The notes: generated by a model not told the origin, from the letters alone. A stretch of 63,022 bases of DNA from Patescibacteria group bacterium (GCA_031539165.1 JAVKLK010000033.1:1-63022), one strand, 5' to 3'. Numbered from the stretch's first letter, positions 148-62,088 are shown. A program made the numbers and translations.

Positions 148-1506
148 ATGTCTCCCAATCTTTCTCTTCTCTCCCGATCATACGACCTCCGAGGCGTCTA
201 TGGCTCAGAAATCGACGAATCATTTTTTGAAAATATTGGGAAAGCTCTCGGAACTTGGGGGCCAGAAGGGAAAATTGTTGTCGGAGGTGATGCTCGGCTT
301 TCTACCCCTTCTCTCAAAAAAGCACTTTCAGATGGACTACGATCTGTTGGAAGAGATGTGATTGATTTGGGCATTATATCAAGTGATATGCTTCAATATG
401 CAACCATTGCTTACGCCGAAGAGATTGCCCTGGGAGTTATGGTAACAGCAAGTCATAACCCAAAAGAATACAATGGCTTTAAAGCATGCCTAAAAAATGC
501 GCGCGCCATAAATCTCAAAGAAATTGGCTGAATTCTTGCAAAGAGTATAGAAACCGCTTCTTGGTTATCACCAAAAGGTCTCGGCTCACTCGAACAACGC
601 AATCTTCTCCCTCTTTGGATTGAGCGAATTTCATCATTTCTCATGTCTGACGTGAGTCATCTCAAAGTTGTTGCAGATGCAGGAAATGGAACAGCTGGAG
701 TATTTATGGAGGCCCTCGCTCATAAGCTCGGCTTTGAACTCATTCCCCTCTATTTTGAACCAGACGGGAATTTCCCCAACCATCATCCATCGCCAATCGA
801 ATCAAAAAACATGCAAGACCTTATTCAGAAGGTTCAGGAAGTCGGAGCTGATATCGGAGTAGCGTTTGATGGAGATGCTGACCGTGCCGTACTCTGCGAT
901 GGAAGTGGAAGCATTATTGGCGCATCCATTACCATGGCTGCCATCGCAGAACTGTTCCTCCTCGAAAACCCAGGAAAAACGATTATCTACAATACTGTTA
1001 CAAGTCGCATCGTTCCAGATACGGTTGCCCAGCTTGGAGGGAAATCCATTCGGGAAAAAGTTGGCCACGTGTATATAAAAGATCGAATGTCTCAAAATTC
1101 GGATGTTGTTTTTGCTGGAGAACATTCCAGTCACTACTTCTTCCCAAGTCTTTGAAATATGGACTCTGGAGTGATTGCTTTTCTTCTCTTTCTCGAATAC
1201 ATGGGGCAATTCGAGTGCAGTGCTCAAGCAGTCCGAGAAAAATTTACAAAATATTCTGCCATAGAAGAAACGAATTTCCGAGTGCGAAATGTTGCGGAAG
1301 TATTGAATTTCCTTTCGGATAGATACAAAGATGGCTATCAAGAACACCAAGATGGAATGTTTGTATCGTATGAGGATTGGTGGTTCAGTGTGCGTCCAAG
1401 TTCTGGAGAACCACTCATCCGTGTTAATATAGAAGCAACGAGTTCGGAGCTTCTTCGAGAGAAAGCGGAAGAAATTCTCTCGCAAATTCCTCAATTTCAC
1501 GTATAA
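148..1506 (+). CDS. phosphoglucomutase/phosphomannomutase family protein (alpha-D-phosphohexomutase)
   Basis: Track ORFs 148-531, 643-1155 and 1159-1506 share one frame, joined by in-frame TGA at 532-534 and 1156-1158 with no TAA/TAG between. Active site TASHNP, Mg site FDGDADR, sugar-binding GEHSSH. Confidence 0.9.
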
Positions 1507-1530
1507 CATCCTGAGTTATCCTTCCAAAAC

Positions 1531-2307
1531 GTGAATCTTTCTCTTGAAGCACTCCTCGCAGAAAATGCCGACCTCAAGCGCAAACTTGAGGTGAGTCGTC
1601 GTTGGATGGAACGAGAGGTCCGAGAAAGTGCCCACAAAATTGCGGCAAAGCGAGTAGGGAAAATGAGTATTGGCGCGAGAGATTCTTTTCTCGAAGAAAA
1701 CCAAGAAGAAATCATTGCGAATCGTATCCGATCCTATTTTGGAGAGCTTCTCTTGCTTAATGCTCCCAAAAATACTGTAGAACATCTCGTCGATTCAGAG
1801 ATTAGTTATTTTTCTCTCTCCAAGCTCTCTTCTGGGGATGGCATAGGAGTAGTGAGTTCCTATACTAAGATTCTCGATAGCCTCATAGAATCAGCTATTA
1901 CCAATCAATTCCGAAAGTTCGTATCCAAACAAGGACCCGTGATTCTTCGTTCAAATGATCCTCTAGAAAAAGCACTTCACCTCGTTATCACCAAGAAGTA
2001 CACGCTTTCCACCGGTCGTCTCTACGGACTCTTGAAGGCTATCAAAAAAAATGAACCCCTTTTAGAGTTTGGAAAGTGTTTTGCTCGATATCTAGAAAAA
2101 TATCCGAGTCTTGGAGGTTTTCTCCTCTCTGATGCTTTTTTTGTTCCCTACTCAAATCTTATTGAGGGGGAAGTATTCGGGGGGAAAAGACATACAGGAA
2201 AAATATCCAAAGAAGAAACGGAATCGGTTCGAGAACTTCTGGTTGGATGATTCAAAAATAAAGACGGTCTTCTCTATCAGTTTCTGAGTCAGATGAGCGT
2301 CATATAA
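1531..2307 (+). CDS. hypothetical protein
   Basis: Track ORF 1531-2250 (GTG start) reads through TGA 2248-2250 to TAA 2305-2307. No motif recognised. Confidence 0.5.
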
Positions 2308-2457
2308 CTAGAGCACTTCCTTTAGTTCTTCCAGCTCATCTTGGGTAAAATAGGCAAGTATGTTCATAAACTGCTCTTGCTGACGAACTGGCATATCGGA
2401 TGCGCGGATTTTTGTTTCGATAGGTACTTCAACAAGAACCTCTGTTACAGAGAACAT
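2308..2457 (-). CDS. small hypothetical protein (49 aa)
   Basis: ATG (rc of 2455-2457) to TAG (rc of 2308-2310): MFSVTEVLVEVPIETKIRASDMPVRQQEQFMNILAYFTQDELEELKEVL. Supported only by being an open frame. Confidence 0.2.
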   Translation of the reverse strand: MFSVTEVLVEVPIETKIRASDMPVRQQEQFMNILAYFTQDELEELKEVL

Positions 2458-2578
2458 GATTTATTTTGATTTTTGTATAGAGTTGAGCGTGCTGAGTATT
2501 CAGCAAAGGAAAACAAATATTTTTGAGGAAACTCTCGAATATCTGTCGATGAATTTATTAAAACACAAACAATAATAT

Positions 2579-3067
2579 ATGTCAATAATTCTCTGAATCG
2601 ATCCGGGAACCACTACTGTTTGATACGCGGTAATCCGATTGGAGTGAAGAAAACGCTCGATTGTCGATATCGGAGTAATTCACACACCCCCAAAGGCAGA
2701 TCTTTCATTGAAACTTCTTGACATTGGAGCGGATATCGAGTCGCTCGTTCGAACCCATTCCCCGGAAATATGCTGAGTGGAGCGATTATTTTTTGGGACA
2801 AACATAACAACAGCTATTGATGTGGCTCATGGACGCTGAGTTATTCTTCATACTCTCACACGACTTTGAATCCCCCTTCGGGAACTCAATCCAATGGAAG
2901 TAAAAAAAGGCATCTGTGGGAATGGGAGAGCCCCAAAAACCCAAGTCCAAAATGCTCTCAAGCTCCTTTTTGCACTCGATACCATACCAAAACCCGATGA
3001 TGCGGCAGACGCGCTCGCAATTGCCTATATTACCAGCCTCTCCCTCGAAATTCACTGATTGTCCTAG
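2579..3067 (+). CDS. ruvC: crossover junction endodeoxyribonuclease RuvC
   Basis: Appears only when TGA=Gly: MSIILGIDPGTTTVGYAVI... with TGA at 2594-2596 and 2621-2623 on conserved glycines. C-terminal PDDAADALAIAY motif. Ends TAG 3065-3067. Confidence 0.9.
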
Positions 3068-3133
3068 CTTGAATTTTGCGAACTATTCCTATACTGGAGG
3101 CCTTACACTATTTTACGGCTGAACTTTTCTTTT

Positions 3134-4936
3134 ATGCATATCACCTCAGATTCCATTCGAACCAAGTATCTCGAATTTTTTGGAACAAAAGCGCACGCCG
3201 TCATCCCTTCTGCTCCACTCATACCAGAAAATGATCCTTCAGTTCTCTTCAATACAGCAGGAATGCAGCCTCTTGTTCCTTACCTTCTTGGAGAAAAACA
3301 TCCTATGGGGAAACGAATTGCTGATGTTCAAAAATGCGTCAGAACCGGGGATATTGACGACGTAGGAGACAACACTCACCTTACATTCTTTGAAATGCTC
3401 GGGAATTGGTCTCTCGGTGATTATTTCAAAAAGGAATCTATTGAATGGTCTTGGGAATTTCTCACTTCCGCAGACTGGCTGGGGCTCGACCCAAAGATGA
3501 TAAGCGTGACTGTGTTTGAAGGGGATGAAAATGCCCCTCGAGACGAAGAATCAGCGACAATATGGAAGTCTCTCGGTATGCCAGAAGGACGAATTGCCTA
3601 TCTTCCTGCAGAAGACAACTGGTGGGCAGCAGGACCGACTGGGCCTTGCGGACCAGATACTGAAATTTTTTATTGGGTGGGTGAAGGACTCCCTCCGGAA
3701 GGATCAAACAAAGGTACCGATAGTGCCAATTGGATGGAGATATGGAACAATGTGTTCATGCAATACAACAGAATTGATGCCACAACACTTACTCCACTCC
3801 CTGCACCTTGTGTAGACACGGGTATGGGACTTGAACGAATCACCGCAACCCTAAACGGAAAAACAACCGTCTACGATACAGATATATTTGCTGAAGTACT
3901 TGCTTCCATCAAAAATCTCGTTGGAGACCACTATCAAGAAACATCCGCTCGAATCGTTGCGGATCATGTACGAGCTGCAACCCATATGATTGCCGACGGA
4001 GCAACTCCGAAGAATGTGGATCAGGGGTACATCCTTCGACGGCTTATCCGACGAGCTATTCGAGAGTTCTACAAGATGAATTACTCCAAGCCTGCTCTTG
4101 TACAGATTGCTGAGCTCTACATTGCAAAGTTTAGTCCAGTGTACGATTCCATTCGCACTGGAGCACAAAAAGTTCGAGATGAACTCACAAAAGAAGAGGA
4201 GAAGTTTACTCGAACGCTCGAACAAGGGACTCGTGAATTTGAAAAAATTGTTCGAGGAATGCAAGAAGCTGCCCAAAAAACCGGACAAACAATCACCCAT
4301 ATCTCCTGACAGAGAGCCTTTACACTCTTTGATACCTATGGATTCCCTTTTGAAATGACGGCAGAAATGGCGAAGGAGCAGGGATTCACGGTTGATAAAA
4401 CTGGCTTTGAACAAAAATTTGCCGCACACCAAGAACTTTCTCGAACTGCCTCAGCGGGAATGTTTAAGGGAGGGCTCGCCGATCAATCTGAAAAGACTAC
4501 CGCTCTTCACTCCGCTTGTCACCTCATGCTTGCGGGACTCCGAAAGGTGCTTGGAGAACATGTGGCACAAGCAGGATCCAATATCACAGAAGAGCGACTT
4601 CGGTTTGACTTCACCCATCCAGATAAGATGACTCCTGAGCAAATTGCAGAAGTAGAAGCCTATGTAAATGAGGCGATTCAATCTGAACTCACCGTTACGC
4701 TCGGGGAAGAAGCAAAGGAACAGGCAAAAAATCGAGGCGTTTCAGGGTCTTTCTGGGAAAAATACCCTGATGTCGTCAAGGTATACAAAATGGTTGGTGC
4801 AAACGGAGTTGTCTATTCAGAGGAACTTTGTGGAGGCCCTCATGTAGCAAACTCAAAAGATATGGGGAAATTCCGCATCACCAAGGAAGAATCTTCAAGC
4901 TCTGGAGTTCGAAGAATTAAGGCGGTATTGGAGTAA
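3134..4936 (+). CDS. alaS: alanine--tRNA ligase (short form, ~600 aa)
   Basis: Track ORFs 3134-4309 and 4355-4936 share a frame, joined by TGA 4310-4312 inside ISGQRAFTLFDTYGFPFEMT. Class II catalytic core, then editing-site motifs HSACHLM and CGGPHV. Ends RRIKAVLE with no further domain. Confidence 0.93.
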
Positions 4937-4937
4937 A

Positions 4938-6255: not shown

Positions 6256-6338
6256 GAATACATACTAAGCCTTGCAAGAATCCAAAATCAAGGAAGGCGC
6301 AGACATTATGGAGATAAGTCCAAAAACTGCAAAAGATT

Positions 6339-6413
6339 TGGTGCCAATGAGTGGAGTCGAACCACCGACCGCAGGGGTATGAATCCTGTGCTCTACCGCT
6401 GAGCTACATTGGC
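6339..6413 (-). tRNA. tRNA with CAT anticodon (elongator Met, or Ile2 if lysidine-modified)
   Basis: Reverse complement is GCCAATGTAGCTCAGCGGTAGAGCACAGGATTCATACCCCTGCGGTCGGTGGTTCGACTCCACTCATTGGCACCA. Paired 1:72, anticodon loop TTCATAC, encoded CCA. Confidence 0.85.
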
Positions 6414-6526
6414 AAGTGCGCAGAAGAGTATACAAAAGATTTCAAGAGTCAATTTTTCATTGACTTCTCATCGCTTTACCCTATCATTCGCGCGTCTTTT
6501 TTGGACCTTCTTTTTTTATTCTATTT

Positions 6527-8671
6527 ATGGCCATCGCGACCGACCTAAAAAATATCCGAAATTTCGGTATTTGTGCGCATATCGACGCAGGAAAAACAAC
6601 TACTTCAGAACGTATTCTCTTCTACTCAGGAAAATCCCACAAAATTGGTGAGGTTCATGATGGAGCGGCGACTATGGACTGGATGGAGCAAGAAAAAGAG
6701 CGTGGTATTACCATCACCTCTGCAGCCACTACAACAAGCTGGAAGGGTACTCAGCTCAATCTTATTGATACCCCAGGTCACGTTGACTTCACTATTGAAG
6801 TAGAGCGATCTATGCGTGTTCTAGACGGAGCAGTTGCGGTATTCGATGCTTCTCAGGGAGTTGAGCCACAATCAGAAACCGTTTGGAAACAAGCAGATAA
6901 GTACGGAGTACCTCGAATTGCCTTCGCAAACAAGATGGACAAGACAGGAGCTTCATTCCAAATGACTCTTGATTCTATCAAGGAGCGTCTTACTGGACCA
7001 AATAAAATTCTTCCAATTCAACTTCCTATTGGAGAAGAAAGCGATTTCACGGGTATTATCGACTGTGTAGAAAAGAAGGCATACACATTCGAAGGGAAAA
7101 TGGGAGAAAATGTTATTGAAATTGCTATACCAGACTCTCTCAAGGCAAAAGTTGATGAGATGCACGCGGCAATCGTAGAAAAAGCAGCGGAGCAGAGCGA
7201 GGAGCTCATGAACAAGTTCTTTGATGCTGGGACACTCACTGTTACAGAAATCAAGCAAGGACTTCGAAAGGGGGTTGTCTCTGACTCTATCTACCTGTTG
7301 ATGTGTGGTTCATCTCTCATGAATAAGGGAGTTCAGCTCATTCTCGATGCAGTAGTTGACTACCTTCCTTCTCCAAACGACGTAAATGAAGGAACCATCA
7401 GTGGACTTGATGCAAACGATGAGTCAAAGACTCTCACATTCAGACAGGAAGCAAGCGAGCCTCTTTCTGCTCTCGCCTTCAAGATCATGACGGATCCATT
7501 TGTAGGACGAATCACCTTTGTTCGTGTGTACTCAGGAACACTCAAGTCAGGAAGCTACGTTCTCAATCCAATTAGCGGACAAAAAGAGCGAATTGGACGA
7601 CTTCTCCAGATGCACGCAAATCAGCGTCAAGAAATCGATGAAATTCCAGCAGGAAACATCGGTGCGGTTATTGGACTCAAGGATACAAAGACAGGAGACA
7701 CTCTGTGTGAAGAGACAAAGGCAGTTATTCTTGAGCGAATGGAATTCCCAGAGCCAGTTATCTCTATCGCGGTAGAGCCAAAAACAAAGGCAGACCAAGA
7801 AAAAATGGGAATGGCCCTGAATAAGCTTGCAGAAGAAGATCCTTCATTCCGAGTTTCTACGAATTCAGAAACTGGTCAGACTATCATGGCAGGAATGGGA
7901 GAACTTCACCTTGAAATTCTCGTAGATCGAATGAAGCGTGAGTTCAAAGTAGAAGCAAACGTTGGAGCACCTCAGGTTGCCTACCGAGAAACTATTACTC
8001 AGGCAGTAAAAGATCAACAAGGAGTTCACAAGAAGCAATCTGGAGGACGAGGACAGTTCGGAGACGTTACTATTACTTTTGAGCCAATCACTCCAGAAGA
8101 ACGACGAGCAGATCCAGAAGGACTTGCTGAAGAGAATGTATTCGTGAATAAGATTGTCGGAGGAGTGGTTCCACGAGAATTCATTCCTGGTATCGAAAAG
8201 GGTCTTAAGAAAGCATACTCTCGAGGAATTATTGCTGGATATCCTATCGTTGACGTAAAGGCAACTCTTACTTTTGGTAGCTACCACGATGTTGACTCAA
8301 ATGAGCTTTCATTCCAACTCGCAGCAATCAAGGCATTCCGAAATGCTGCTGCTAAGGCAAAACCAGCACTTCTTGAGCCTATCATGAAGGTTGAGGTAAA
8401 TACTCCAGAAGAATACATGGGAGATGTTCTCGGAAATTTGAACTCAAAGCGAGGACAGATTACTGAGATGACCGAGCGAGGAATGGCAAAAATCCTTCGA
8501 GCGTTTGTTCCACTTTCTGAAATGTTCGGATACTCTACTGATCTGAGATCTATGTCTCAAGGACGAGCAACCTATGTTATGGAGTTCTCTCACTATAACC
8601 AGGTTCCTTCAAACATCACTGAGAAAATCCGAGCAGAGCGAGGAGTGAAGTTTGAAGAAGACGAAGAGTAG
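6527..8671 (+). CDS. fusA: elongation factor G
   Basis: Uninterrupted 714 aa ORF. G1 [10 protein letters not shown]3 [12 protein letters not shown], and full EF-G domains III-V. Contains no TGA. Confidence 0.98.
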
Positions 8672-9536: not shown

Positions 9537-11138
9537 CTACTCTTCACTCGACTTCGGGCGCATCAGAGGAAAAAGCACCACATCTCGGAGATTATTCTGT
9601 TCCGTAAGAAGAGCCACGATTCGATCAATTCCCATCCCCCATCCAGAAATCGGAGGCATTCCGTGCTCCATGGCTCTGACAAACTCAGCATCTCCTGTCA
9701 TGGCCTCCTCATCTCCAGAAGCAGCCGCTGCCTCTCCTTGAACAAAGCGCTCTGCCTGATCAATCGGATCCACGAGCTCGGAGTAGGAATTCACCAACTC
9801 CCATCCATTGATAACCAACTGGAAGGCATCCGCTTGATTTGTATGAGTATCATTTCTTCGGGCAAACGGCTTCAATATGATTGGATAATTATACAAGAAA
9901 GTCGGATTGATAATCTTTGGACGAGACATTTTCTTGTATAAGTAGTCAATGAGCGTGGTGAGTCCCATCTGGTCCATTCCTTCTATAACAATCCCTTTCG
10001 ATCGTATATCAGCACGCAAAGATTCTACCTCGGTGTACACAGATACATCAATTCCGGTATCCTTTTTTACAAGCTCGATATAGTCAAGCTTTGCCCAAGG
10101 AGTGGTGAAATCCACCGGCACCAACTCATTCGACTTATTCAGAATATTTCTCTTTCGATCAAGACCAAGCGTATCGAAAAGATAGTCAAACATTTTCTCG
10201 GTAAAGGCGATATTGTCTTTGTACGTCCAGTATGATGCGTTATGTTCAAGATGAAGGTGTTCTGGAAGATGAGACGGATCCATGCCTTCATTTCGGAAGG
10301 CTTTTCCAAGCTCAAAAATCTTCTCCATCCCAGCAATATTCATGAGTTTCAGAGGAATTTCATGAGAAATTCTCAGAAACACATCGATATCAAGGGCGTT
10401 CTGATGAGTAATATACGGCCTTGCTGCTGCTCCAGTTGCAGCATTCGTAAGCACCTGTCATTCAATTTCAGTAAATCCTTCTTTCCAGTAAAACTCTCGC
10501 AGTGTCCTGATGAAGTCAGATCGGAAACGGAAGCGTTTCATTGCCGATTCATCCGTTATGAGATCCAAATGACGCTCTCGATACTTCATCTCTTCATCAG
10601 CAATTCCATGAAATTTCTCTGGAAGTGGGCGAAGCGCCTTCCCCAAGAAAGTAAACTCAGAAACGAATACGGTAAGTTCTCCTTTATGAGTACGAAACAA
10701 TTCTCCTTTTACTCCAATAAAATCACCCAAATCAAGGAGTTTTTCCGAAAATTTAAACGCAGAAATTTCATCCTCTCCAGAGCCAACACTCCCAACTGAC
10801 CCATTTGCCGTTGTGATAGAGCAGTTTTCTTTTGAAAACATAATCTGAATTCGCCCTGACTCATCCTGGAGATGAGCAAAAGCAATTTTTCCGAAGGTTC
10901 GATAGAGTACAATTCGTCCAGCAGTGATAGTATCAACCACGGGAGATGCAATTACATCCTCCACTGTCCGGAACTCCCCCGCTCGATTCAAAATAGAGTC
11001 GACGGAGTGTTCTTTGGGGAACGTCTCAGGGTATACTGGCACTCCTAACGTTCGGATTCTCTCAAGTTTTTGGCGGCGAACCTGCATTTCGTCGTTCCCT
11101 GACATATGGCTTTGTAATGAGGAAATAGAAGGACTCAT
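9537..11138 (-). CDS. lysS: lysine--tRNA ligase (class II)
   Basis: Track ORFs 10458-11294 and 9537-10454 share a frame, joined by TGA at 10455-10457. OB-fold region, NAATGAAARPYITHQNALD, LRISHE, and class II motif 3 region GMGIDRIV. Start placed at ATG 11138 (alternative ATG 11105). The track M at 11294 would overlap the divergent gene. Confidence 0.9.
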
Positions 11139-11253
11139 CCTAGCAAATTTTCTAGGAAAGTCAAAAATGAGGTCACCGGGAAATTCTCTGCACTGTATCC
11201 TCTGAGAAAATACTTCCGCTTGCACCAAGGATTCGTTCTGGTACAATCCAAGT

Positions 11254-11889
11254 ATGAGACCTTTAGATAATCCCGTTCTCGTTGCAGCATACAAGCATGT
11301 ACTCCAGCTGCTCCAAAAGGTAAAGCATTACCCGTACCACAACATTGGGCACACCCTCGATGTCTTTCGACGGGCTCGAGAACTCGCAAAATCGGAGCAT
11401 ATTTCTCCAGAGGAAGAAGAAGATGTGCTTCTTGCAGCACTCTTTCATGACACTGGTTTTATCGAGTCGTATTCGAAGAATGAGGAAATCGGGGTACGAA
11501 TCGCTCGAGACTGGCTCACGCTCCAGTGACATCCAAAAACGAGAATTGCCCGAGTTGAATCACTCATTCTTGCCACCACTCCATTCTCAAAAACAAAGTC
11601 TGTCCTTGAGCAGATTATTCAAGATGCGGATTTGGATAATTTTGGGAGAGATGATTGTTTCCAGAAGATGCAAAAGGTAGAAGAGGAACTTCGAATCATG
11701 ACCCCACTGGACACACGTTCCATCTATACTATATTTCGCAAGCTTCACCACGAATTTCGATTTCAGACAAAGACATCAATCCGGGAGCGTCAAGCAAAAA
11801 AATTCAGAAATGCGATTCGATTTGATCGAATCTATGAACACGTTCTTTCTCAGGAAAGCTCCGAAGTATCTCTTCCTATCATAGTCTAG
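11254..11889 (+). CDS. HD-domain phosphohydrolase
   Basis: Track ORFs 11254-11529 and 11632-11889 share a frame, joined through TGA 11527-11529. YHNIGHTLDV ... LFHDTGF ... QDADLDNFG, the H..HD..D pattern. Confidence 0.75.
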
Positions 11890-13884: not shown

Positions 13885-15837
13885 CTACCGACGCTTCCTT
13901 CTGAGCTCGATGAGTTTGTCTCTCAAATCTGCAGCAAGTTCGAAATCAAGGTTACTTGCCGCCACATCCATTTCGAGTTCCAACCGTCTAATAGCAGTAT
14001 CGAGCTTCTCAGAAGGAAGTTCTGCCAGTTCAGCCTCACTTTTCTTCCCCTTAAGTCAGATTTCCTTGATGGAAGAAAGGATGGTTTGTGGAGTAATTCC
14101 ATGAGCCACATTGTACGCATGTTGCACTCAACGACGCTGCTGCGTAATATCAATCGCCTCCTGCATGGCAGAAGAAATCCTCTTTTGATGAGAGTACATG
14201 ATAACTCTTCCATTCACATTCCGCGCAGCTCGACCGATAATCTGGAGCAAGGCACTCGTAGATCGAAGAAATCCTATCTTCTCCGCATCAAGAATTCCGA
14301 TAAACGAAACCTCCGGCAAATCAAGCCCCTCTCGCAAGAGATTTACTCAAACAATAACTTCAATCTTTCCGAGTCGAAGATCTCGCAAAATCTCAAGTCG
14401 CTCAATCGTTTCAATCTCTGAGTGGAGGTATTTTACCTTTACGCCATTCCCCGCGAGATATTCAGCAAGCTCCTCGCTCGATTTCTTTGTGAGAGTGGTT
14501 ATAAGCGCTCTCTCCCCTCGAGATCGGACATCTTGAATATTTCGCATGAGTGAATCCACCATAAATTCCATATCCTCAAGCTCAATTTGAGGATCAAGAA
14601 GTCCAGTAGGACGAATAATCTGCTCATGGACCTCAACTTGCTTTTCTGCTTCATATTTGGAGGGGGTTGCCGAGACAAAAACGGTTTGTCCCAGTTTTTT
14701 CTCAAACTCTTCAAACTTCAACGGGCGATTCTCGAGTGCGGATGGAAGGCGAAACCCATATTCAACAAGATTCAATTTTCTTGCCCTATCTCCCGCGTAC
14801 ATTCCACCCACTTGAGGTATGGATATATGAGATTCATCAATGAATACAAGATAGTCTTTCGGGAAAAAATTGAGCAAGGTAGACGGAGTACTTCCTGGCT
14901 CTCTCCGAGATAGGTACATCGAGTAGTTTTCAACTCCATTCACATATCAGACTTCCTGAAGCATTTCTAGGTCGTATTCTGTCTTCATTTTGATGCGCTC
15001 TGCCTCAAGAAGTTTCCCATTCTTCTTGAAAAATTCTACTCGTTCATCCAGTTCAGTTCGAATCTTTGGAATAATTTCTGCAACAATATCGGGAGATGTA
15101 ACAAAATGTTTCGCCGGAAAAAGGGTGACCTCTGAAACAGTCTCAATTCGCTCGTTTGTAAGGGCCTCTTTCCAATACATGCGCTCGAGCTCATCTCCAA
15201 AAAAATCAAGTACGAGGATGTGCTCACTCGAGCTTGGGAATATTTCCAATACATCACCGATAAGTCGGAACATTCCCGGCTTAAAGTCTGCTGAAGCACG
15301 ACGAAATTGAAGGGATACGAGTGTCGAAATAATCGACTCCATCGGGTAGTTTTTCTTGGTTTCAAAGAAGACGGTTTGTCCATGATAGTCATCAACCTCC
15401 CCTATTCCATAAATACAAGATACGGATGCAACAATAATGACATCCCTTCTTGTAAGAAGACTCTCCGTTGCAGCATGACGAAGACGATCTATTTCTTCAT
15501 TGATAGTCGATTCTTTCTCGATATATGTCCCTGTTTTTACCACAAAAGCCTCTGGCTGATAGTAGTCATAGTAACTGACAAAGTAGTGCACCGCATTCTC
15601 TGGAAAAAATTCTTTAAATTCTTGCGCAAGTTGTGCGGCAAGAGTCTTGTTGTGGGCAAGCACAAGAGTGGGACGTTGAAGCTCCTGGATAATATTTGCC
15701 ATGGTAAAGGTCTTTCATGAACCAGTAACTCCAAGCAGTGTCTGAAATGGATTTCCTTTACGAATTGAAGCAACGAGTCATGCAATTGCTTCGGGTTGAT
15801 CGCCGGTGGGTTTGTATTTGGAGTGAAGCTGAAACAT
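13885..15837 (-). CDS. uvrB: excinuclease ABC subunit B
   Basis: All fragments (15702-14947, 14943-14347, 14337-14128 and the tail) share one frame. N-terminus [18 protein letters not shown]. Walker A GVTGSGKTFT has its second G encoded by TGA (rc 15715-15717). C-terminal UVR motif [13 protein letters not shown]. Ends TAG (rc 13885-13887). Confidence 0.95.
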
Positions 15838-16693: not shown

Positions 16694-18172
16694 ATGAGTA
16701 TGAATCTCCTTTCGCTTGCAAAAAATATCCATCCTAGTGTAGGATTCTTTCGATTCAAGAAATTGAATGGAAAAATTCTGATAACAAATGAAATAGGTGG
16801 ATGGCACTTCCTTGATGAAGATGAGTTTGCCTCATATGTTCAGGGTAAACTTGAGGATGGACCTTTATATGAAGCGTTAAAAAACAAGCTCTTTATAAAG
16901 GGACCCGATTATGAGGCTCAGATGGCAGCGGTATACCGGAAAAAAAATTCCTTCCTATTTTTCGGACCAACACTACACATGATTGTAACTACTCTTCGGT
17001 GTAATCATGCCTGCAAGTACTGTCATGCGGCTGTAGCCCCAATGACCGCAAAAGACTTGGATATGACAGTAGAAACAGCGGAAAAGGTTGTTGATACCAT
17101 CTTTTACTCATCGTCACCAAATCTGACCATTGAGTTTCAAGGAGGAGAAAGTCTGGTAAACTGGAAAGTTGTACAGTTTGTAATAGGATATGCCAAACAA
17201 AAGGCGTACTTTCTAAAAAAGAATCTTACCTTCTCTTTGGTCACCAATCTGTCTTTGATGGACGATGAAAAACTTACATATCTTCTAGATGAGGGGATTA
17301 ATATCTGTACGTCACTTGATGGAGATACGGAAACACATAATGATCAGCGAGTTTGGAAAGATGGAAATTCATATGAGAAAGCCACCTATTGGATTAAGAA
17401 AATAGAAAATGAGATGAAAAAGCGATGAGATGAATCCTACAAAGTATGAGCCCTAACTACTTGGACAAAAACAAGTATAAAGAATTATAAGAAGATAATT
17501 GATGCCTACGCATCTCTTGGAATAAACACAATTGGATTTAGATGGCTGAATCCGTATGGGTTTGCGGCTGCGCAAAAAGCCGACATGAGTTACTCTCTTG
17601 AAGAATATAAGGCTTTTTATAGGAATTGAATGGACTACATTCTTGATTTAAACAAGAAAGGGGTCTATCTTAGAGAAATGATTTCATCAGTATATCTGCA
17701 AAGCATACTAACAAACGAAGGAACTCAGTTTATGGATATTCGATCTCCTTCTGGGGTAGCACTATGATGAGTGGCATACAATTATGATGGGAAGGTCTAT
17801 GCGTCAGATGAATCACGCATGCTTTGAAGAATGGGCAAACAAGATTTTCTTCTCACTCCTATGCTAGAAACTGGAGAGGCCACATATACAGCCATGGCAA
17901 ACTCAGATGTGACAAAAATCGCAACTCTTGCAAGTACTTTGGATGGATTACCAGGATACAATGACTCTGTTTACAAACCCTATATGGGAACGGATATTAT
18001 CTATTCCTATACTCAATACGGGAATCCTTATAGTACTTTTGCGAAAGATGAGAAGAATAAAATGCATCTCGTAACTCTAGATTATCTGTTTGAAAAACTC
18101 CAAGATCCAGAATCAGCAAAAATATTCAAAAGCTGGGTATTTGGTGAAGATTTTCTAAAATCAGAGGCCTAG
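16694..18172 (+). CDS. radical SAM maturase, HxsB/HxsC-like (rSAM-1)
   Basis: Track ORFs 16694-17428 and 17831-18172 share a frame, joined through six TGA codons. CNHACKYC (CxxxCxxC) and FQGGES. N-terminal FRFKKLNGKILITNEIGGWHFLDEDEF is typical of peptide-maturase rSAMs. No Cys after the core. Confidence 0.85.
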
Positions 18173-18231
18173 CTGGTTCTTCTTGATTCTCGAGATTTAC
18201 ATGCTATACTTAAGTCACTAACATCACTATT

Positions 18232-18717
18232 ATGAGCATTAAACCAAAAAAGGAGCTCCCAAAAATTAAAAAAAATCTCTCTGGATTTCTGACACCAGAG
18301 AGCTCAAAAATAAAAAAACTTGATGCACTCGCTCTAGCAGTTGGAGCACTCGCCCTACTATGAGGTGTATCGGAAGCAGCAGCAAGCCACTCTAGCTCTA
18401 TAACTCCATCTCATAGCAATGCTGGAAGTCATGGAAATGGAGGAATCCAATCTGGAACCGCCTCGCACGTGAATGGAAATGGTATTGATGGAACAGTATG
18501 GTATAACCAAGGATTTGCAAACTGCGCCGTGAGTCAAGTAGTGAATTGACACGTAAGTGGAAGTATCCCGAGCCAAGTTCCTGGAACGGCAGATATTTCT
18601 GGATGAAATATTATGGGGACAAATTTATCTGCACACTCTAACAGCACAGTAAACAGTCACGCGAGTCATGGAAGTCATGGAAGTCATGGAAGTCATGGAA
18701 GTCATGCTGCTTACTAA
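18232..18717 (+). CDS. hxsA: His-Xaa-Ser repeat protein, putative RiPP precursor (HxsA-like)
   Basis: 161 codons. Lys-rich N-terminus, one hydrophobic segment LDALALAVGALALLGGV, then scattered SHSS, SHSN, SHGN, SHVN, GHVS, AHSN, SHAS, ending SHGSHGSHGSHGSHAAY. Three in-frame TGA codons. Confidence 0.75.
18664..18708 (+). repeat. tandem 9-nt coding repeat (agtcatgga x4 plus agtcatgct)
   Basis: Encodes (Ser-His-Gly)4-Ser-His-Ala at the C-terminus of the HxsA-like CDS. Confidence 0.95.
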
Positions 18718-18726
18718 ATTTTAGAC

Positions 18727-19422
18727 ATGAACAAAATAAAACAGTCACCTCAGATTATTATCGCTAGTATTCTGGCGTTTCTCATAGGATGTGGAGCTAT
18801 GTTCGCATGGTCTCAGCTACAGCATGTCTGAAATGGGAAATCAGAGAAAAAAGAAACTCGTGAAATGGTGCAAAAAAATTCTTCTGGCACTACTACCGGA
18901 ACCTGAGAGGTACCTTCTATTCGGATACCAACCCAATCTGATGTGTTTATGCAGAGCTTCTCTTGAATTATAAATGGAGAAGGATTTGATGCAAAGTTCA
19001 CAGCATACGGTCAAGCAAAAAAAACCATAGGCGACTATATAGCGAATGGAAGTGGTGGAATCTTTTACGAGTATCCAGGAACCGATTATGTAGTTCCGTC
19101 CCTTTTTGTCTGTGAAACCCTTACAACAGCAAAGAATATGAAAGACTTTGAAGGAGAGCTCCGGAATTCTATTCGCAAGTACCAAAGTGTTTTTACAATA
19201 CAGTCTAAATCTTCAGAAAACCCTGATTTTAAAATGCTCAATGAACATCTTCAGTCGTTTATATCAGGAAAAATACCATTTGAAGCATATCAAAAACTCG
19301 TAAGTCCTCTTCTTCAAAAATATGAGAAAGAGAGCAAGCTTTTTTCTTTCTTTCAAGAACTTATTGATATGAAAAAGGATGACACAGTTGACTGTGCCCA
19401 GCTCTCAAGAAAATACTTCTAA
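18727..19422 (+). CDS. putative lipoprotein
   Basis: ATG 18727, 9 nt after the precursor stop. Signal peptide with lipobox FLIGC. Joined through three TGA codons to track ORF 19138-19422. Confidence 0.6.
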
Positions 19423-19425
19423 GTT

Positions 19426-20898
19426 ATGTCCCGCGCCCATATACAATTTAGGGGGGTTATCGCCGATATTGACCAGAAGAAGAGTGGATGACATTTTCCC
19501 GATCAGCTCATTATTCGGGTTTGAAAATGATGTAACTTTCGTTGTGCCTTTTGTAATGTTGCAGAAAATGAAAAAGTCTTAAGCATAAAGGCATCACTCA
19601 AGGAAATTCTTGCCATAACCTTCCGCAAGATTCTTCATTCGAATCTTACCTCTGGAAGGATTAATGTTACCGTCTCTTGAGGCGAACCAAGTATATTTCA
19701 GGCAGAAACTATTTTTGTATTGAGATATTTTCGAAAGTATTTTGAAAAAAGAGGAATTACTGCTCAATTCGATATTCAAACGAACGCATCAAATATTGAT
19801 CAGAGATTCTCCGAAATACTCAAACAGGAATGAGTGGTTCAAGCTCTTGTTTCAACACATGCTCATGATCCCGATATATACAAAAAAATTATTGGTGTTC
19901 CCTATGAAACTCTGGGAAAGAAGGCTGAGCTAGGAATACGCAATCTCATCGAATGTTGAATTCCCGTTTCTCTTAATATAGTAATGAACTGAGTAAATGC
20001 TGATCATTACTTTGAACATATACAATACCTCGTTGCCTCTTTCCCAGAGATTGAACTTTATAACCTGGGTATGATGCAGCCTCACTGAATGGCACAAAAG
20101 AATTTAGAAGAGCTCTATCTTCCTTACGAAAAAGGACACCATCAGTATAACAGAGCAATTCACTATCTTAAGTGAATTGGGAAACGAGTTCATTCACATC
20201 TCGTAGGGCCACCTGTATGCTATATGGACGATGTAAGCTCAAGTCTTGAGTATCTTCATAACCGGAACATTTTCAGGGAATGACCTCAATCACAAACGCT
20301 TATTCAGGATATCAATGATGATAACAAAACTCATACCTCAGCCTGCAGAATGTGCAGAGCCAAGAGAGTATGCAGTGGAACATGGAAAGAATATGCTGAC
20401 AAACAGACGCTCCATCCAATCCCCACTGGACAATTTCTTATAAGCTCAAAATGATGCCATATATTTGAGAATAAAGCTGCTGCTGAAAAGCTTTATTCTC
20501 AAGGAATTCGTGAAGTATTCATTCTTGGAAAAGACAGTAATCAAATTATTGATGACATTGCTACGGTTAAGAATATCTGATACGAATCTATCATTTTAGT
20601 AGATACATTTGAAAATGTGAAAAATCCTTCGGACATATCCTGAGTAACAATTCAATCTTGGTTTGAAGACATGAAGAAGTACGGTCTTCAGAAGCTGCTT
20701 CATATAGAAAGATACAACCGAGAGAGTGGATTTCAGTTCCAGATTGACTCAGATGTACATATTCCCTATTTATCTTCAAAAGAAGCTGAGTGGATAAATC
20801 AACACCCTTTTCCAAGCATAGTATACCATGTTCACTCCTGGAGTCATGAGGCAAAGATGAAATGTCAAAATCGTTCAAATATAGTTTTCTGAAAATAA
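19426..20898 (+). CDS. radical SAM protein with C-terminal Cys motif and ~170 aa extension (rSAM-2)
   Basis: ATG 3 nt after the previous stop. IIRVGKGCNFRCAFCNV (CxxxCxxC). VSGGEPS with the first G encoded by TGA 19678-19680. Later CRMCRAKRVCSG (CxxCx5C). More than ten in-frame TGA codons. Tail matches track ORF 20671-20892. Confidence 0.85.
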
Positions 20899-20901
20899 CA
20901 T

Positions 20902-23784: not shown

Positions 23785-23840
23785 ACGTTATATAGTACTC
23801 TCTACCCTCTCGTTCTGGAAATTAATTTGCGAGGAAAAAA

Positions 23841-25136: not shown

Positions 25137-25166
25137 AATATTAAAAGTTGCCGAAGGAAAAACGAA

Positions 25167-28435: not shown

Positions 28436-28439
28436 ATCT

Positions 28440-46907: not shown

Positions 46908-47900
46908 TTATTTCGCAAACTTTGCACGAATCTCTGCCTCAATAGATTCGGCAATTTCTGGATTCTGAGAGAGAAATTCTCGAGCATTTTCTCGCCCTTG
47001 CCCCAGTTTCACTTCTCCATAACTATAAAACGCCCCTGATTTCTTGATTGCTCCAATGTCCGCACCGATATCAATAATCTCTCCTGTCCGAGATATTCCT
47101 TCATTAAAGAGGATATCAATTTCCACTTCACGGAATGGTGGAGCAATTTTATTTTTCACTACTTTTACTTTTGCCCTATTTCCTGTTGCCTCTTTATCAT
47201 CCCCGGTTCCTGATTCAATTTTTTCTTTTCTTCGTATATCAAGTCGCTGAGATGCATAAAACTTCAATGCATTTCCTCCAGTGGTAGTTTCCGGATTCCC
47301 AAACATGACTCAAATCTTCATTCGAATCTGATTGATGAATATAACCGTCGTATTGGATTTAGAGATAACTCCCGTTATTTTCCGAAGAGCCTGTGACATC
47401 AGTCGAGCTTGCAATCCCATGAAAGAATCACCCATGTTCCCTTCGATTTCCGCTTTCGGAACCAAGGCAGCTACAGAGTCAACCACTATCAAATCTACTG
47501 CACCGGAACGCACGAGTGCATCGACAATTTCTAAAGCCTGCTCTCCATAGTCTGGCTGAGAGATAATAAGCTCGTCGATATTTACTCCTATCTTTCGTGC
47601 ATACTCAGGATCAAGGGCATGTTCAGCATCAATGAATGCTGCCGTTCCACCTGCCTTCTGACACTCGGCAATAGCATGAAGTGTAAGTGTAGTCTTTCCT
47701 GAGGACTCTGGACCGTATATCTCAACGATACGCCCCTTTGCGTAACCACCTCCTAGGGCGGCGTCTAGGGCGATAGAACCAGAGGATACCGTCTCAACAT
47801 TGAGGAGTGATTGAGTCCCGAGAGTCATAACGGAGCCGGCTCCGAATTGTTTCTCTATCATCGCAAGAGCTTGCGTGAGGGCTTCTTTCTTATTACTCAT
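46908..47900 (-). CDS. recA: recombinase RecA
   Basis: Track ORFs 47310-47900 and 46908-47306 are joined by TGA 47307-47309 inside the invariant [29 protein letters not shown]. Walker [10 protein letters not shown]. Confidence 0.97.
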
Positions 47901-48284: not shown

Positions 48285-49406
48285 CTAATCGAACAGTTTC
48301 TCGAAAAAACCTTTAGCATCGTAGGTATCAAGGCGCTTTTCTTGAGCAATTGCTTGATAGAGTTCTCGCTCTTTCTTTGAGAGTTTTTTGGGGATTTCAA
48401 GAGCAAGCTCAAGGATGCAGTTCCCTCTTGGAGCAGCTTTCTTGGATACGTCAGGGAAGCCTTCTTGTTTAAAAACAAGCTCTGATCCGGGATCCGTACC
48501 TGGTTTGATATCAATCTCTTTGTCTCCCATAAGAGGAATGGTCACTCGTTTCTTTGTTCATAGAATGAACTCTACCGGATCGAAAGATACTCGATATCGA
48601 ACATGATTCCCCTCTCGTACAAGACCCTGAAATGTATCAGGAACTCGAAAGTGCACAAAAAGATCACCTGACCCATCCTTCCCTTCATGCCCCTCATCCC
48701 GAAGCTTAATCGTCATTTCATCATCGATACCTGCCGGAACATCTATCGTTCGTTTTCTTTTTTCTTCAATATATCGATGTCCTTTGCACGTCCCACAAGG
48801 AACGCGAATCACCTTCCCTGTTCCATCACAGCGCTCACAAGAGGATGATTGTTCCATAACGCCAAAAAGGGTTTGTACCCGACGACGCACTTTTCCGCTT
48901 CATCCACAGTCTGGACAAGAAGTGATATCGCTGGCAGATTTTGCACCAGAACCTTTGCAATCTGGACAAAGAATCTGCTTCTCAAATTGAACCTCTTTTT
49001 GCACTCCGGTGTATGCCTCTGCAAATGAAAGTGATACCGTAATTTCTATGTCGGCACCTATTTCTCTCCGACGTCACTGAGGGGATCGCCCCCCAAAGAA
49101 TGTCTCAAAAATATCCCCCATGTCGAACTCTTGTCAGAATCCACCAGAGAATCCACCAGAGAATCCACCAGAGCCAAAACCCTGAGAGCCTTCCATCGTA
49201 CCGAATCGGTCATAGTGAGCCTTTTTCGTCTCGTCACTCAAAACCGAGTATGCCTCGTTTACTTTTTTAAATTCTGCTTCCTTCGATGGATCACCTCGAT
49301 GCCTGTCTGGGTGAAGCTCCATTGCCTTTTTTCGATATGCTTTCTTTATATCGTCCGCACTCGCGGATCGATCAACTCATAAGAGTGAATAAAATTCGTA
49401 TGCCAT
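48285..49406 (-). CDS. dnaJ: molecular chaperone DnaJ
   Basis: [16 protein letters not shown] (G encoded by TGA, rc 49377-49379), HPD, G/F region (GGFS)3. Four CxxCxGxG-type repeats: [32 protein letters not shown]. Joins track ORFs 49134-49322, 48558-48890 and 48285-48545. Confidence 0.93.
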
Positions 49407-56170: not shown

Positions 56171-57580
56171 TTAATTATCCGAAATTCGAGCAAGTCTCAC
56201 CACGGTCTCAATATGGTGCGTATGAGGAAACATGTCCACTGGTATTATATCGGTAATAGTATATTTCCCTCCTTCCAAGAGTGATGCCAAATCACGAACG
56301 AGTGTCGAAGGATTACAGCTCACATAGAGAATTTCTCTTGGCTGAAAAGCAAGAATGTTCCCCGCAGCGCTTGGGTGCATTCCGTCACGAGGTGGATCAA
56401 CTACGAGGGTATCCGCCGATCATCCATTCGCGAGAAATTTTTCCAGGAATTGTTCAACAGGAGCATTTACTGCTTCAAACGTATCAGAAAGTCCATTGAT
56501 TCCAGCATTCTTCGTGGCATCCATACTTGCGTCTGGAACGATTTCAACAGAATAGACTTTTTCAAATAAGTCCGCAAGAAGTATTCCAATAGTTCCCGTT
56601 CCAGCGTACAAATCAAGAAGTATTCCCTTTTGATATCGAATAAGTGATCGGACCGCTCCATAGAGCTGTTCGGCACCCTGGGTATTCGTCTGGAAAAAGC
56701 TTTTCGGACGAATCTCAAAGCGCTTCCCAAGAAGAGTCTCATCGATATATCCAGAACCGTGGAGGATTTCTGCTTCTCCCGTAACAATATCGGCACGACC
56801 AGAATTCTTCAGAAGAATCATCGTGTGCACCCCCTCTTCTTGGAGGAGGTTCTTCCATACCCCATCAAATCGGTCTCGATCAAAGGCCGGATCCTGTGTA
56901 TTAATACTCCAGAGAATCATGCAATTCCCCGTAGTTTTGGACTCACGAACGACAAAGTGTCTCCAAACTCCTTTGGCAGTCTTCGGATCATAGGTTGGAA
57001 GTCCAGAGGCACGAGTGAGAGCATCTGCCTTGCGAAAAATAGCGTTTACTCTATCGGAAGCAAGAACGCAGTACTCGCAATTCACAATACGGTCAAACTC
57101 TCCCTGCTTATGAAATCAAAATCGGAACTCATCATGAATTTCTTCCTTTGCAGAAATGTATTTCCCAAAGGAAAATTCCAGCTTATTTCTATATCCTTCC
57201 GTCTCTGGACTCGGAAGTATAGAGTGCCAATGAGCCTGTGTAAGATGACCATTTGCCGCAAGGCCAGAAAAACATTCTCGCACTTGCTCATCTTTGATTC
57301 TCAGTTGCTCCTCATACCGAATTGGGAGCCATTTACATCCTCCATACACTTGGTAGTGGGCAGGAAGAGGTTGCTCAAGAGGAGAATGTTCGATTACATC
57401 GAGCATTTGTCATTCCAGATGCCCCTTCCGAACTTTTAGGATTCGAACCGATACGAGCTGACCAGGAATTACGCCCCCAGACACCATAACAGCTCTTCCA
57501 TCTTCGGCACGCGCAAGTCCCTTGCCACTAAATACAAGCTTCTCAATCCGAACTCTCGGGAGAATTTCATTTTTTTTCAT
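56171..57580 (-). CDS. TRAM-domain RNA (uracil-5-)-methyltransferase, RlmD/TrmA family
   Basis: Fragments 57116-57406, 56420-57085 and 56171-56380 plus the N-terminus MKKNEILPRVRIEKLVFSGKG share one frame. DLYAGTGTIG, VVDPPRDGMH, YVSCNPSTL. Confidence 0.85.
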
Positions 57581-58191: not shown

Positions 58192-58842
58192 ATGGTCAAA
58201 CATTCTCTCTCATTTGGAGTCGACGAAGCAGGTCGATGAGCCTGGGCAGGTCCTGTATATGCCGCAGCATGCGTTTTTTTGAAACCAAAATTCAAGCGTA
58301 CCCTAACCTGGTGAATCATTACCGACTCAAAACTTCTCTCCGCACCCCTGCGTGATCGCATTTACGAGGAAATGCATGAGGCAAGAAATCGAGGAGAAAT
58401 AGCATTTGCTGTCGGTTCTAGTTCTGCCGAAACAATAGACAGAGTATGAATCAAAGAAGCAAATCGTCTTGCAATGGAAATGGCAATTCAAGAACTCATG
58501 AGGATTCTCTGACACAACTTTTCCATCTGTATTAAAGTAGATGGTCGAGACCATTACCGCTTCAATCTAGAAGTGCCCCACACTCTCGAAGAGCATGTTG
58601 GCTGAGACCGTCGTTTCAAAGAAATCGGAGCCGCCTCCATTCTCGCAAAAGTATCTCGAGATAGATACATGCAAGAATTGGAAAGGCAGTATCCCTATGG
58701 ATTTGACCTCCACAAAGGCTATGGAACAAAGTGACACAGAGAAAAACTTGAGAAATCTGGACCAAGCCCAGAACATCGTTTCTCCTATGCTCCAATCCGG
58801 GTTTTTGGAGAAAGAAAATTCTTCACATGTTCTTCAGAGTAA
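58192..58842 (+). CDS. rnhB: ribonuclease HII
   Basis: Invisible under the standard code. [22 protein letters not shown] with TGA 58237-58239 as the G of [35 protein letters not shown]. Ends TAA 58840-58842. Confidence 0.9.
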
Positions 58843-60037: not shown

Positions 60038-60054
60038 TTTTCTGAGAAGCACAT

Positions 60055-60082
60055 AAAAAAATCCCCGTGTGGGGATTTTTTT
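60055..60082. terminator. bidirectional terminator between convergent genes
   Basis: AAAAAATCCCC-GTGT-GGGGATTTTTT, between the stop at 60037 and the groEL stop at 60106. Confidence 0.7.
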
Positions 60083-60105
60083 CTTGAAAGTGCAAGACTC
60101 TCAAA

Positions 60106-61752
60106 TTAGTACATACCTCCCATACCTCCCATTCCTGCTCCATGATCATGAGCTGGGGCTTCAGATGTTGGCTTCGGAGCATCAACAATAAGTGCTTCTG
60201 TTGTAAGGAACATTCCTGCAATTGAAATCGCATTTTCCAAAGCACATCGCTCTACTTTCTTCGGATCAATAATTCCTGCCTTGAGCATATCCACAAAAGT
60301 ATCTTTTGCAGCATCGTATCCGTAGTTTACATCAGAGGATCGAACGATGGAGTCAACAACGAGTGCTCCTTCTTTCCCGGCATTTTCAGCAATCTGACGA
60401 ACGGGATATGAGAGTGCTCGTGCGACAATCTGTGCACCAATCTCTTGATCTCGATTCTCAAATTTCATCGAAGCAATTGCCGCAGAAGCCTTGAGAAGAG
60501 CCACTCCTCCTCCAGCAACAATCCCTTCTTCAACTGCTGCTTTTGTCGCATTAAGTGCATCTTCAATACGAAGTTTCTTTTCTTTCATCTCCACTTCAGA
60601 CGCAGCTCCTACCTTGATTACCGCAATACCTCCAGCAAGCTTGGCGAGTCGCTCATGAAGTTTCTCACGGTCGTAGTCTGATTTTGTATTTTCAATCTGA
60701 GCTCGAATTTCTGATACTCGGGCGTCAATTCGAGTTTTGTCTCCAGCACCACCGATAATTGTGGTGGAATCTTTCTTTGATACAACCGTTTTTGCTCGAC
60801 CAAGATGTTCTACCCCCGCCATATCAAGCTTGTATCCAAGTTGATCGGTGATAACGGTAGCACCGGTAAGAATAGCGATATCCTGAAGTATTTCTTTCTT
60901 TCTATCTCCAAATCCAGGAGCCTTGATAGCAAGAACATTGAGAACTCCCTTGAGTTTGTTCAAAATAATCCCCGTAAGAGCATCCCCATCCACATCTTCA
61001 GCAACAATGACCAAGTCTCGCTTCCCCATACCCGCAAGAGCCTCCAAAAGAGGGAGAATATCTTTGAGACTTGATACTTTTTTATCAGTAACAAGAATGT
61101 GTGCATCAGAGATACGGGCTTCCATCTTTTCAGCATCACTTACCATATAAGGGGAGATATACCCTGTATCGAATTTCATACCTTCGGTGAGCTCAACGGA
61201 AAGACCAAAAGTCTGCCCTTCTTCAACCGTGATAACCCCATCTTTCCCCACTTTATCCATAGCATCGGAAATAATGCCCCCAACTTCAGCATCTTGTGCA
61301 GAAATTGTCGCAACTTGTGCTATCTCTTCTTTGGTAGAAAGCATCTTTGCATTTTTTGCAAGCTCAATCTCCACTTCTTCTCCTGCTTTCTTCATACCAT
61401 TCTTTAGCTCGATTGCATTGATTCCGGATCGAATTTCGCGGAGTCCTTCTTTTACCATCGCATAGGTTAAGAGGGTTGCTGTCGTAGTACCATCTCCAGC
61501 AGCATCATTCGTTCGAGAAGCAGCCTCCTTGATGAGTTCTGCCCCCATATTCTCGATTTTATCTTCGAGCTCTATTTCTTTGGCGATGGTTACTCCATCG
61601 TTCGTCACCTGAGGAGCCCCATATCCTTTGGAGAAAATGACATTCCGACCTTTGGGTCCTATAGTCGCGGTAACGGTTTTTGCCACTTTTTCAATACCAG
61701 TGAACATTTTGAGGCGAGCTTCGTCGCCGAAATGAATATTTTTTGCTGACAT
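60106..61752 (-). CDS. groL: chaperonin GroEL
   Basis: Uninterrupted 548 aa [15 protein letters not shown] and the C-terminal [10 protein letters not shown] tail. No TGA. Confidence 0.98.
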
Positions 61753-61797
61753 ATATTCAAAAATTAAAGACTAATAATCGTGAAGAGTATCTAGGAT

Positions 61798-62088
61798 TTA
61801 CCCAAGTTTGGCGAGTATGTACTCGTAGCCAACAATTCGGTATTTAGTCCCATCAACCTCGACCTCATCACCAGAATACTGTCCAGAAAGGACTCTATCC
61901 CCTGGTTTCAGGTCTATGGAGATATGTTTTCCGTTCGCGTCCTCTCGACCCGGACCAACTGCTACTACCTCATACATATTTGGGCGCTCTTTGTTTGCAG
62001 AGGCGGGAAGTATAATTCCCGACTTTGTGATGTTCTCGGCCTCGACTCCTTTCAAAAGAACTCGATCCGACATTGGCTGTATTTGCAT
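61798..62088 (-). CDS. groES: co-chaperonin GroES
   Basis: 96 aa: MQIQPMSDRVLLK...GIILP...EVVAVGPG, directly upstream of groEL. Confidence 0.95.
   Translation of the reverse strand: MQIQPMSDRVLLKGVEAENITKSGIILPASANKERPNMYEVVAVGPGREDANGKHISIDLKPGDRVLSGQYSGDEVEVDGTKYRIVGYEYILAKLG

Follow-up and report, generated by a model that had tools for sequence, protein, structure and literature searches.

In this work, the meaning of the codon TGA (UGA in the messenger RNA) was analyzed in a 63,022-nucleotide contig of an uncultured Patescibacteria group bacterium (JAVKLK010000033.1, assembly GCA_031539165.1). This whole stretch, contig C23 of a genome of 886,863 bp in 46 contigs (marker completeness 100%, contamination 1.1%), is called the window below. 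With NCBI translation table 11 the window contains 104 open reading frames (ORFs) of at least 100 amino acids (aa), most of which are short. By comparing its stop-to-stop ORFs under table 11 and with TGA, TAG, or TAA taken as sense, it was observed that the gene structure is repaired by TGA-sense only, and not by TAG- or TAA-sense. Table 11 gave 114 ORFs with a median length of 120 aa, 12 of them with at least 300 aa, and a coverage of 86.8%. The corresponding values were 49 ORFs, 368 aa, 29 ORFs, and 96.8% with TGA as sense, 108 ORFs, 131 aa, 13 ORFs, and 89.5% with TAG as sense, and 108 ORFs, 131 aa, 16 ORFs, and 90.2% with TAA as sense. An earlier interpretation made from the DNA alone (the sequence-only reading) had described conserved genes as split by TGA under the standard code, and the short table-11 ORFs, together with the long ones restored by TGA-sense, bear this out. 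Among the 49 ORFs picked automatically, 217 in-frame TGAs were counted and every ORF closes with TAA or TAG, while a curated list of 48 window ORFs, essential genes included, holds 225 in-frame TGAs and not a single in-frame TAA or TAG. Along the curated ORFs, the TGAs are spread evenly (31, 16, 21, 27, 26, 27, 18, 23, 15, and 21 per successive decile), as is expected of a sense codon. The conserved genes and other features of the window are the following; a lower-case g marks a residue encoded by TGA.

148..1506, plus strand: phosphogluco/phosphomannomutase-family gene, 452 aa, 2 TGA (Pfam PGM_PMM_I-IV)
2579..3067, plus strand: ruvC, 162 aa, 7 TGA at codons 6, 15, 23, 66, 87, 97, and 160 (Pfam RuvC, 2.5e-39)
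3134..4936, plus strand: alaS, short form, 600 aa, 1 TGA (ISgQRAF; Pfam tRNA-synt_2c, 1.8e-140)
6308..8671, plus strand: fusA (EF-G), 787 aa from the chosen start, 2 TGA (Pfam EF-G domains; 59% identity to E. coli fusA)
9537..11294, minus strand: lysS, 585 aa, 1 TGA (Pfam tRNA-synt_2; E. coli lysS, 348 bits)
13885..15837, minus strand: uvrB, 650 aa, 6 TGA, one of them in the Walker A motif GSgKT (Pfam UvrB domains)
16694..29501, plus strand: radical SAM island with six radical SAM genes, including the motif VSgGEP (Pfam Radical_SAM)
34163..34966, plus strand: P-loop ATPase (AAA_28), 267 aa, 9 TGA (Pfam AAA_28, 1.7e-16)
34950..35789, minus strand: rsmA/ksgA, 279 aa, 1 TGA (Pfam RrnaAD, 2.9e-34)
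37205..38623, plus strand: pilC-like type II secretion system protein F, 472 aa, 4 TGA (Pfam T2SSF, 1.1e-43)
38620..39693, minus strand: prfA, encoding release factor RF1, 357 aa, 0 TGA, ending with TAG
46908..47900, minus strand: recA, 330 aa, 1 TGA (KIgVMFG; Pfam RecA, 6.8e-136)
48285..49406, minus strand: dnaJ, 373 aa, 5 TGA (Pfam DnaJ, DnaJ_CXXCXGXG, and DnaJ_C)
56171..57580, minus strand: RlmD/TrmA-like RNA uracil-5 methyltransferase, 469 aa, 3 TGA (Pfam tRNA_U5-meth_tr and TRAM)
58192..58842, plus strand: rnhB (RNase HII), 216 aa, 6 TGA, one of them in GRgAWAGP (Pfam RNase_HII, 1.5e-31)
60106-61752, minus strand: groEL (Pfam Cpn60; E. coli groL match)
61810-62103, minus strand: groES (E. 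coli groS match)
62363..62923, plus strand: GC-rich signal-peptide ORF (coding to 62920, TGA at 62921-62923), beyond the range to which the glycine reading of TGA applies (148-62088)

Pfam scans of the table-25 translations, in which UGA is glycine, confirmed every gene identity named in the sequence-only reading. It had also stated that ruvC, rnhB, and the P-loop ATPase are visible only with read-through, and none of the three loci has a table-11 ORF as long as 100 aa. Its TGA sites were found in frame and in the quoted context at 2594-2596 (ILgIDPG) and 2621-2623 (TVgYAV) in ruvC, at 15715-15717 in uvrB, at 49377-49379 (LLgV) and in CPDCGgSG in dnaJ, at 58237-58239 in rnhB, and at 19678-19680 in the radical SAM island. 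The positions that it gave for the TGAs of AlaRS (4310-4312) and RecA (47307-47309) were each one codon off, and were corrected to 4307-4309 and 47310-47312. In alignments, the alaS TGA lies opposite Gly of E. coli AlaRS, the recA TGA lies opposite Gly of E. coli QIRMKIGVMFGNP, and the dnaJ TGAs at LLgV and CPDCGgSG are both opposite Gly in E. coli DnaJ. In the RuvC structures of E. coli, P. aeruginosa, and T. thermophilus, Gly occupies the positions of codons 6, 15, and 87.

The residue meaning of TGA was determined genome-wide, with 209 kb of E. coli K-12 carrying conserved genes as the reference. In the alignments of all genome ORFs, TGA was replaced by X. For each codon, the E. coli residue facing it was tabulated from the best non-overlapping high-scoring segment pairs (HSPs) without stops only, so that 32,754 columns remained. 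Before this filtering, wrong-frame and antisense alignments were included, TGA was opposite Gly in just 18%, and many '*' appeared. In the filtered set of 124 TGA columns, Gly dominated with 63 (51%), followed by Ala with 10 and Glu with 8; Trp was found in one column, and neither Trp nor gaps prevailed. For comparison, the GGN codons were opposite Gly in 59-67%, and TGG was opposite Trp in 39%. Inside the window, Gly was the E. coli residue at 14 of the 27 TGA columns. The claim of the sequence-only reading that TGA falls on invariant glycines holds at the sites cited there, but it does not extend to the TGAs at large, of which about half are Gly in E. coli (63/124 in the genome and 14/27 in the window). 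When log-likelihoods were calculated with the genome's own substitution profiles, Gly was ahead of the runner-up Ser by 91.6 nats. The other codons all have their standard meaning, including CGA, CGG, and AGG: CGA was opposite Arg in 55% (n=895) and CGG in 47% (n=113), with Trp outside the top residues of both. The leave-one-out likelihood flagged ATG as 'Leu', which was rejected as a reassignment because the flag is an artefact of an amino acid with a single codon.

The stop filter dropped UvrB and RNase HII, whose HSPs ran past the stop, and both were aligned separately. UvrB is 50% identical to E. coli UvrB and its six TGAs lie opposite R, G, G, G, E, and a gap; the Walker A TGA is one of the three that face Gly. 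For RNase HII, the E. coli alignment and the T. maritima structures have Gly at codons 16 and 138, and Asn is conserved in both species at codon 86. Evidence independent of E. coli was obtained from the UvrB of 80 Gracilibacteria-type loci, mostly labelled Candidatus Gracilibacteria and at most 85% identical. Nearly all columns with at least five TGAs are Gly columns, in which TGA alternates with GGN (e.g., 24 TGA and 54 Gly in one column, and 22 TGA and 55 Gly in another).

A tRNA with the anticodon UCA and glycine identity is present at C37:27274-27352. It is the single UCA anticodon tRNA among the 37 tRNAs that ARAGORN identified in the whole genome, together with one tRNA-Gly(UCC) and one tRNA-Trp(CCA). 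The tRNA(UCA) has the pairs G1:C72, C2:G71, and G3:C70 and the discriminator U73, which are the criteria by which Shulgina and Eddy called tRNA-Gly(UCA) (PMC8629427). Six of the seven acceptor-stem pairs are shared with tRNA-Gly(UCC), whereas the tRNA-Trp has the anticodon CCA, A1:U72, and G73. With the general tRNA model RF00005 the tRNA(UCA) scores 45.8 bits (gathering score, 29), and its 7-bp acceptor stem, 5-bp T stem, and short variable region are not those of a tRNA-Sec. The tRNA(UCA) was found in 41 of 41 genomes (the present one and 40 relatives from three families of one order) with 84-100% identity. Among 30 extracted copies, the anticodon loop CUUCAAC is invariant, and compensatory changes occur in the acceptor, anticodon, and T stems. 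A tRNA-Gly(GCC) was not detectable in the present assembly by ARAGORN or blastn-short, despite the use of GGC and GGT (347 codons in the window), and several relatives have one next to the tRNA(UCA). Either the draft lacks tRNA-Gly(GCC), or the four GGN codons are all read by tRNA-Gly(UCC).

The sole class-I release factor of the genome is the RF1 encoded in the window, the only place where PF00472 and PF03462 match. This protein scores 461.6 bits with TIGR00019 (prfA), above the cut-off of 423.25, and 277.6 bits with TIGR00020 (prfB), below the cut-off of 370. It shares 46% identity with E. coli RF1 and 34% with RF2, and its codon-recognition site PxT reads PET, where E. coli has PAT and RF2 has SPF. 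In the relatives, in-frame TGAs are found in the RF1 genes themselves, with a maximum of 17. The search for prfB gave no match at the cut-off in any of the 41 genomes, whereas it was positive in 10 reference bacteria. For the 54 genes whose alignment extends to the E. coli C-terminus, the median distance from there to the next TAA or TAG was 0 aa (10-90% range, -5 to +5), and the curated gene list of the window closes with 35 TAA and 12 TAG.

The genome of this uncultured Gracilibacteria-type member of the Patescibacteria (candidate phyla radiation, CPR) almost certainly uses NCBI translation table 25, in which UGA is glycine. The reading is carried by the codon-residue statistics, the tRNA and its identity elements, the RF2 that was not found, and the termination at TAA and TAG, all of which are observed. 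Given its tRNA-Gly determinants in the acceptor stem and discriminator, the tRNA(UCA) would presumably be a substrate of glycyl-tRNA synthetase (GlyRS), and the charged tRNA would insert glycine at UGA. RF2, the sole reader of UGA as a stop, was not found, and the remaining RF1 would end the genes at UAA and UAG, the sole stops used. Some points weigh against this reading. The charging by GlyRS and the actual insertion of glycine are steps that we infer. The genome is a draft of 46 contigs, so that a prfB not found is not the same as strict absence, although the marker completeness is 100%. Only about half of the TGA columns are Gly in E. coli, slightly below GGN; such a lower share is expected if TGA is preferred at less constrained positions, and TGA behaves as a slightly less constrained glycine codon. 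Finally, the foreign-looking ORF at 62363-62923 apparently needs TGA as its stop.

If UGA were tryptophan, as in table 4, the same frames would be opened as with table 25, and ORF lengths therefore cannot tell the two codes apart. However, a TGA column contains Trp once in 124 cases, compared with 39% for TGG. The only tRNA-Trp is CCA, the tRNA(UCA) has U73 and G1:C72 instead of G73 and A1:U72, and in the relatives TGA is exchanged with GGN and not with TGG. The table 4 reading is already refuted by the column statistics, and we consider it extremely improbable. UGA could also still be a stop or selenocysteine codon, with the interrupted genes being pseudogenes, assembly errors, selenoprotein genes, or cases of programmed read-through. 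ARAGORN indeed calls the tRNA(UCA) a 'tRNA-SeC', but the 7/5 geometry of its acceptor and T stems, its short variable region, and its fit to the general tRNA model speak against selenocysteine, and a search for SelB gave none at the cut-off. The 225 TGAs without any TAA or TAG in 48 ORFs, essential genes included, and the equivalent UvrB sites that hold either TGA or GGN in 80 relatives do not agree with interrupted genes, and no RF2 was found that could read UGA as a stop. The probability of this explanation is practically negligible.

A further alternative is that UGA is mainly glycine but has a context-dependent terminator role in a few genes, such as the ORF that ends at 62921-62923. This ORF has a classic Sec signal peptide and a strong Shine-Dalgarno sequence, and lies in a segment (62300-63022) with a GC content of 0.57-0.64. 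Four further metagenome contigs, which come from different samples, have the order groEL-groES-ORF-secD, and the ORF closes at the equivalent TGA in all five independent assemblies. The DNA of the four is near-identical except in a hypervariable middle, and the strain-to-strain indels there are all in frame. No TAA or TAG lies between the TGA and a downstream terminator hairpin, in the poly-C of which the window contig breaks, and with table 25 the homologous frame would stay open for 139 codons past the TGA, through the hairpin, and into secD. On the other hand, no factor reading UGA as a stop was found, all 54 testable native genes end at TAA or TAG, and the five copies of the ORF are too alike to reveal selection. 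Moreover, the codon usage of the ORF is foreign, with a GC content at third codon positions (GC3) of 0.69 and a preference for CTG, GGC, and GCC. In two genomes of the same genus groES directly adjoins secD and the site of the ORF is empty; in a third, the site holds a small signal-peptide gene of another kind, with a proper stop. The foreign codon usage and the empty site fit a recent transfer from a standard-code donor. The simplest view is that the ORF was imported recently from a bacterium with the standard code and that its stop has ceased to be read as one. A dual role of UGA is very unlikely, and nothing beyond this ORF supports a terminating second role. It is likewise very unlikely, taking both possible routes together, that this conserved small secreted-protein gene still relies on UGA for want of another plausible stop, either through a context-dependent second meaning of UGA or as a gene in the standard code that is retained so that a partner or host using this code can express it.

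Two other explanations of the GC-rich contig end were considered and rejected. A chimeric join does not agree with the recurrence of the gene order groEL-groES-ORF-secD in four other metagenome assemblies. A structured RNA had no Rfam match, and the in-frame indels, the signal peptide, and the ribosome-binding site favour a protein-coding gene. Among 5.8 billion proteins, four near-identical homologues of the ORF were found, 1.8 billion representatives added only a weak repeat match, and neither search gave a donor family. The genome contains further GC-rich ORFs at C6:18825-19871, C10:815-2488, C26:2802-4403, and C46:11998-13794, one of which is lipoprotein-like (MKHLKF...LSAC). Their GC3 is 0.58-0.75, compared with about 0.35-0.4 in native genes, and all are closed by a proper TAA or TAG; these ORFs may have been imported from GC-rich bacteria.

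Table 25, the Candidate Division SR1 and Gracilibacteria code, is known from Absconditabacteria and Gracilibacteria (PMC8629427, PMC13695967), where Campbell et al. (2013) and Rinke et al. (2013) are cited as sources for UGA as Gly, and the same meaning was reported by Hanke et al. (2014; PMC4032931). The present genome agrees with these organisms in the UGA codons opposite Gly, the tRNA(UCA) with G1:C72, C2:G71, G3:C70, and U73, the RF1 that is kept while RF2 was not found (here in a 46-contig draft), and the small CPR-type genome (0.89 Mb), and nothing essential differs. Its GC content of 0.43 is inside the table-25 range of 0.21-0.53 reported in PMC8629427. CGA, CGG, and AGG are reassigned in some related lineages (PMC8629427), but there is no sign here of the CGA/CGG-to-Trp change of Absconditabacteria and some Gracilibacteria, since both codons read Arg. 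The label Gracilibacteria alone does not settle the code. Two species so labelled keep UGA as a stop and RF2, without tRNA-Gly(UCA) (PMC8629427), and the class Gracilibacteria of GTDB has been taken as table 11, with few members predicted to use table 25; the recoded clade is JAEDAM01 of GTDB, comprising BD1-5 and Absconditabacterales (PMC13695967). The present genome and its 40 relatives have the broad NCBI label in common with the UGA-stop Gracilibacteria but differ from them by the tRNA(UCA) and by the RF2 that was not found, and therefore belong with the recoded group. The nearest UvrB loci (at most 85% identity) are labelled Candidatus Gracilibacteria, Patescibacteria, or 'Peribacteria', and the nearest public genomes Candidatus Gracilibacteria, which supports the earlier proposal that the contig comes from a table-25 lineage.

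UGA as Trp (table 4) is found in Mycoplasmatales and several insect endosymbionts. The table 4 taxa (Mycoplasmatales, Hodgkinia, Zinderia, Nasuia, Stammera, and some Eggerthellaceae) resemble the present genome in the capture of a stop as sense, the loss of RF2, and the reduced genome. In these taxa, however, the residue is Trp, decoded by tRNA-Trp(UCA) or a modified tRNA-Trp(CCA), whereas here it is Gly, with a Gly-type tRNA(UCA).

The use of TGA differs among the genes. In the window, it represents 225 of the 1,537 Gly codons (14.6%). The share is 0% in groEL, groES, prfA, and a 480-aa ORF at 58595-60037 (groEL and groES together, 60106..62103, have no TGA among 65 Gly codons), 2-3% in fusA, recA, alaS, and lysS, and 27-48% in ruvC, rnhB, the P-loop ATPase, and most of the low-GC radical SAM island. 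TGA is thus a minor Gly codon, which is avoided in the most highly expressed genes and common in low-GC and poorly conserved genes. Over the whole island the share is 13-48%, compared with 2-16% in the flanking housekeeping genes, which suggests a different compositional history of the island within code-25 lineages.

The value of these results is practical, as the contig and the genome need table 25 annotation. The warning of the sequence-only reading that table 11 or table 4 would annotate them wrongly was well founded. Table 11 cuts up most genes and leaves no ORF of at least 100 aa for ruvC, rnhB, and the P-loop ATPase, and table 4 writes about 15% of the glycines of the window as Trp, including catalytic ones such as the Walker A glycine of UvrB. 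Glycine at UGA, a tRNA-Gly(UCA), and a lost RF2 make up the textbook signature already known for Gracilibacteria and Absconditabacteria, and no new biology is involved. Nevertheless, the assignment is not trivial, because some Gracilibacteria-labelled genomes keep RF2 and the UGA stop (PMC8629427; PMC13695967). Table 25 is also the background against which the radical SAM island, the giant ORFs, and the GC-rich ORF ending with TGA can be interpreted.

Some other features of the window were observed. Four very large ORFs at 30730-33642, 40225-44592, 50313-52988, and 53049-56069 encode 970, 1455, 891, and 1006 aa, respectively; each is broken only by 7-8 TGAs, and no Pfam match at E<=0.001 was found for these four. 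The AlaRS of 600 aa comprises the catalytic and SAD domains and the C-terminal part is missing (E. coli alaS has 2,631 nt, about 876 codons). The start of dnaJ is probably 49406, because homology begins at that ATG, although the longest frame opens at 49700. The 480-aa TGA-free ORF shares 248 nt with the frame of RNase HII, and its true start is therefore probably further downstream. The radical SAM island has a GC content of 0.34-0.38 and also holds several ORFs without a Pfam match, and one of its genes is fused to a Gfo/Idh/MocA-like domain.

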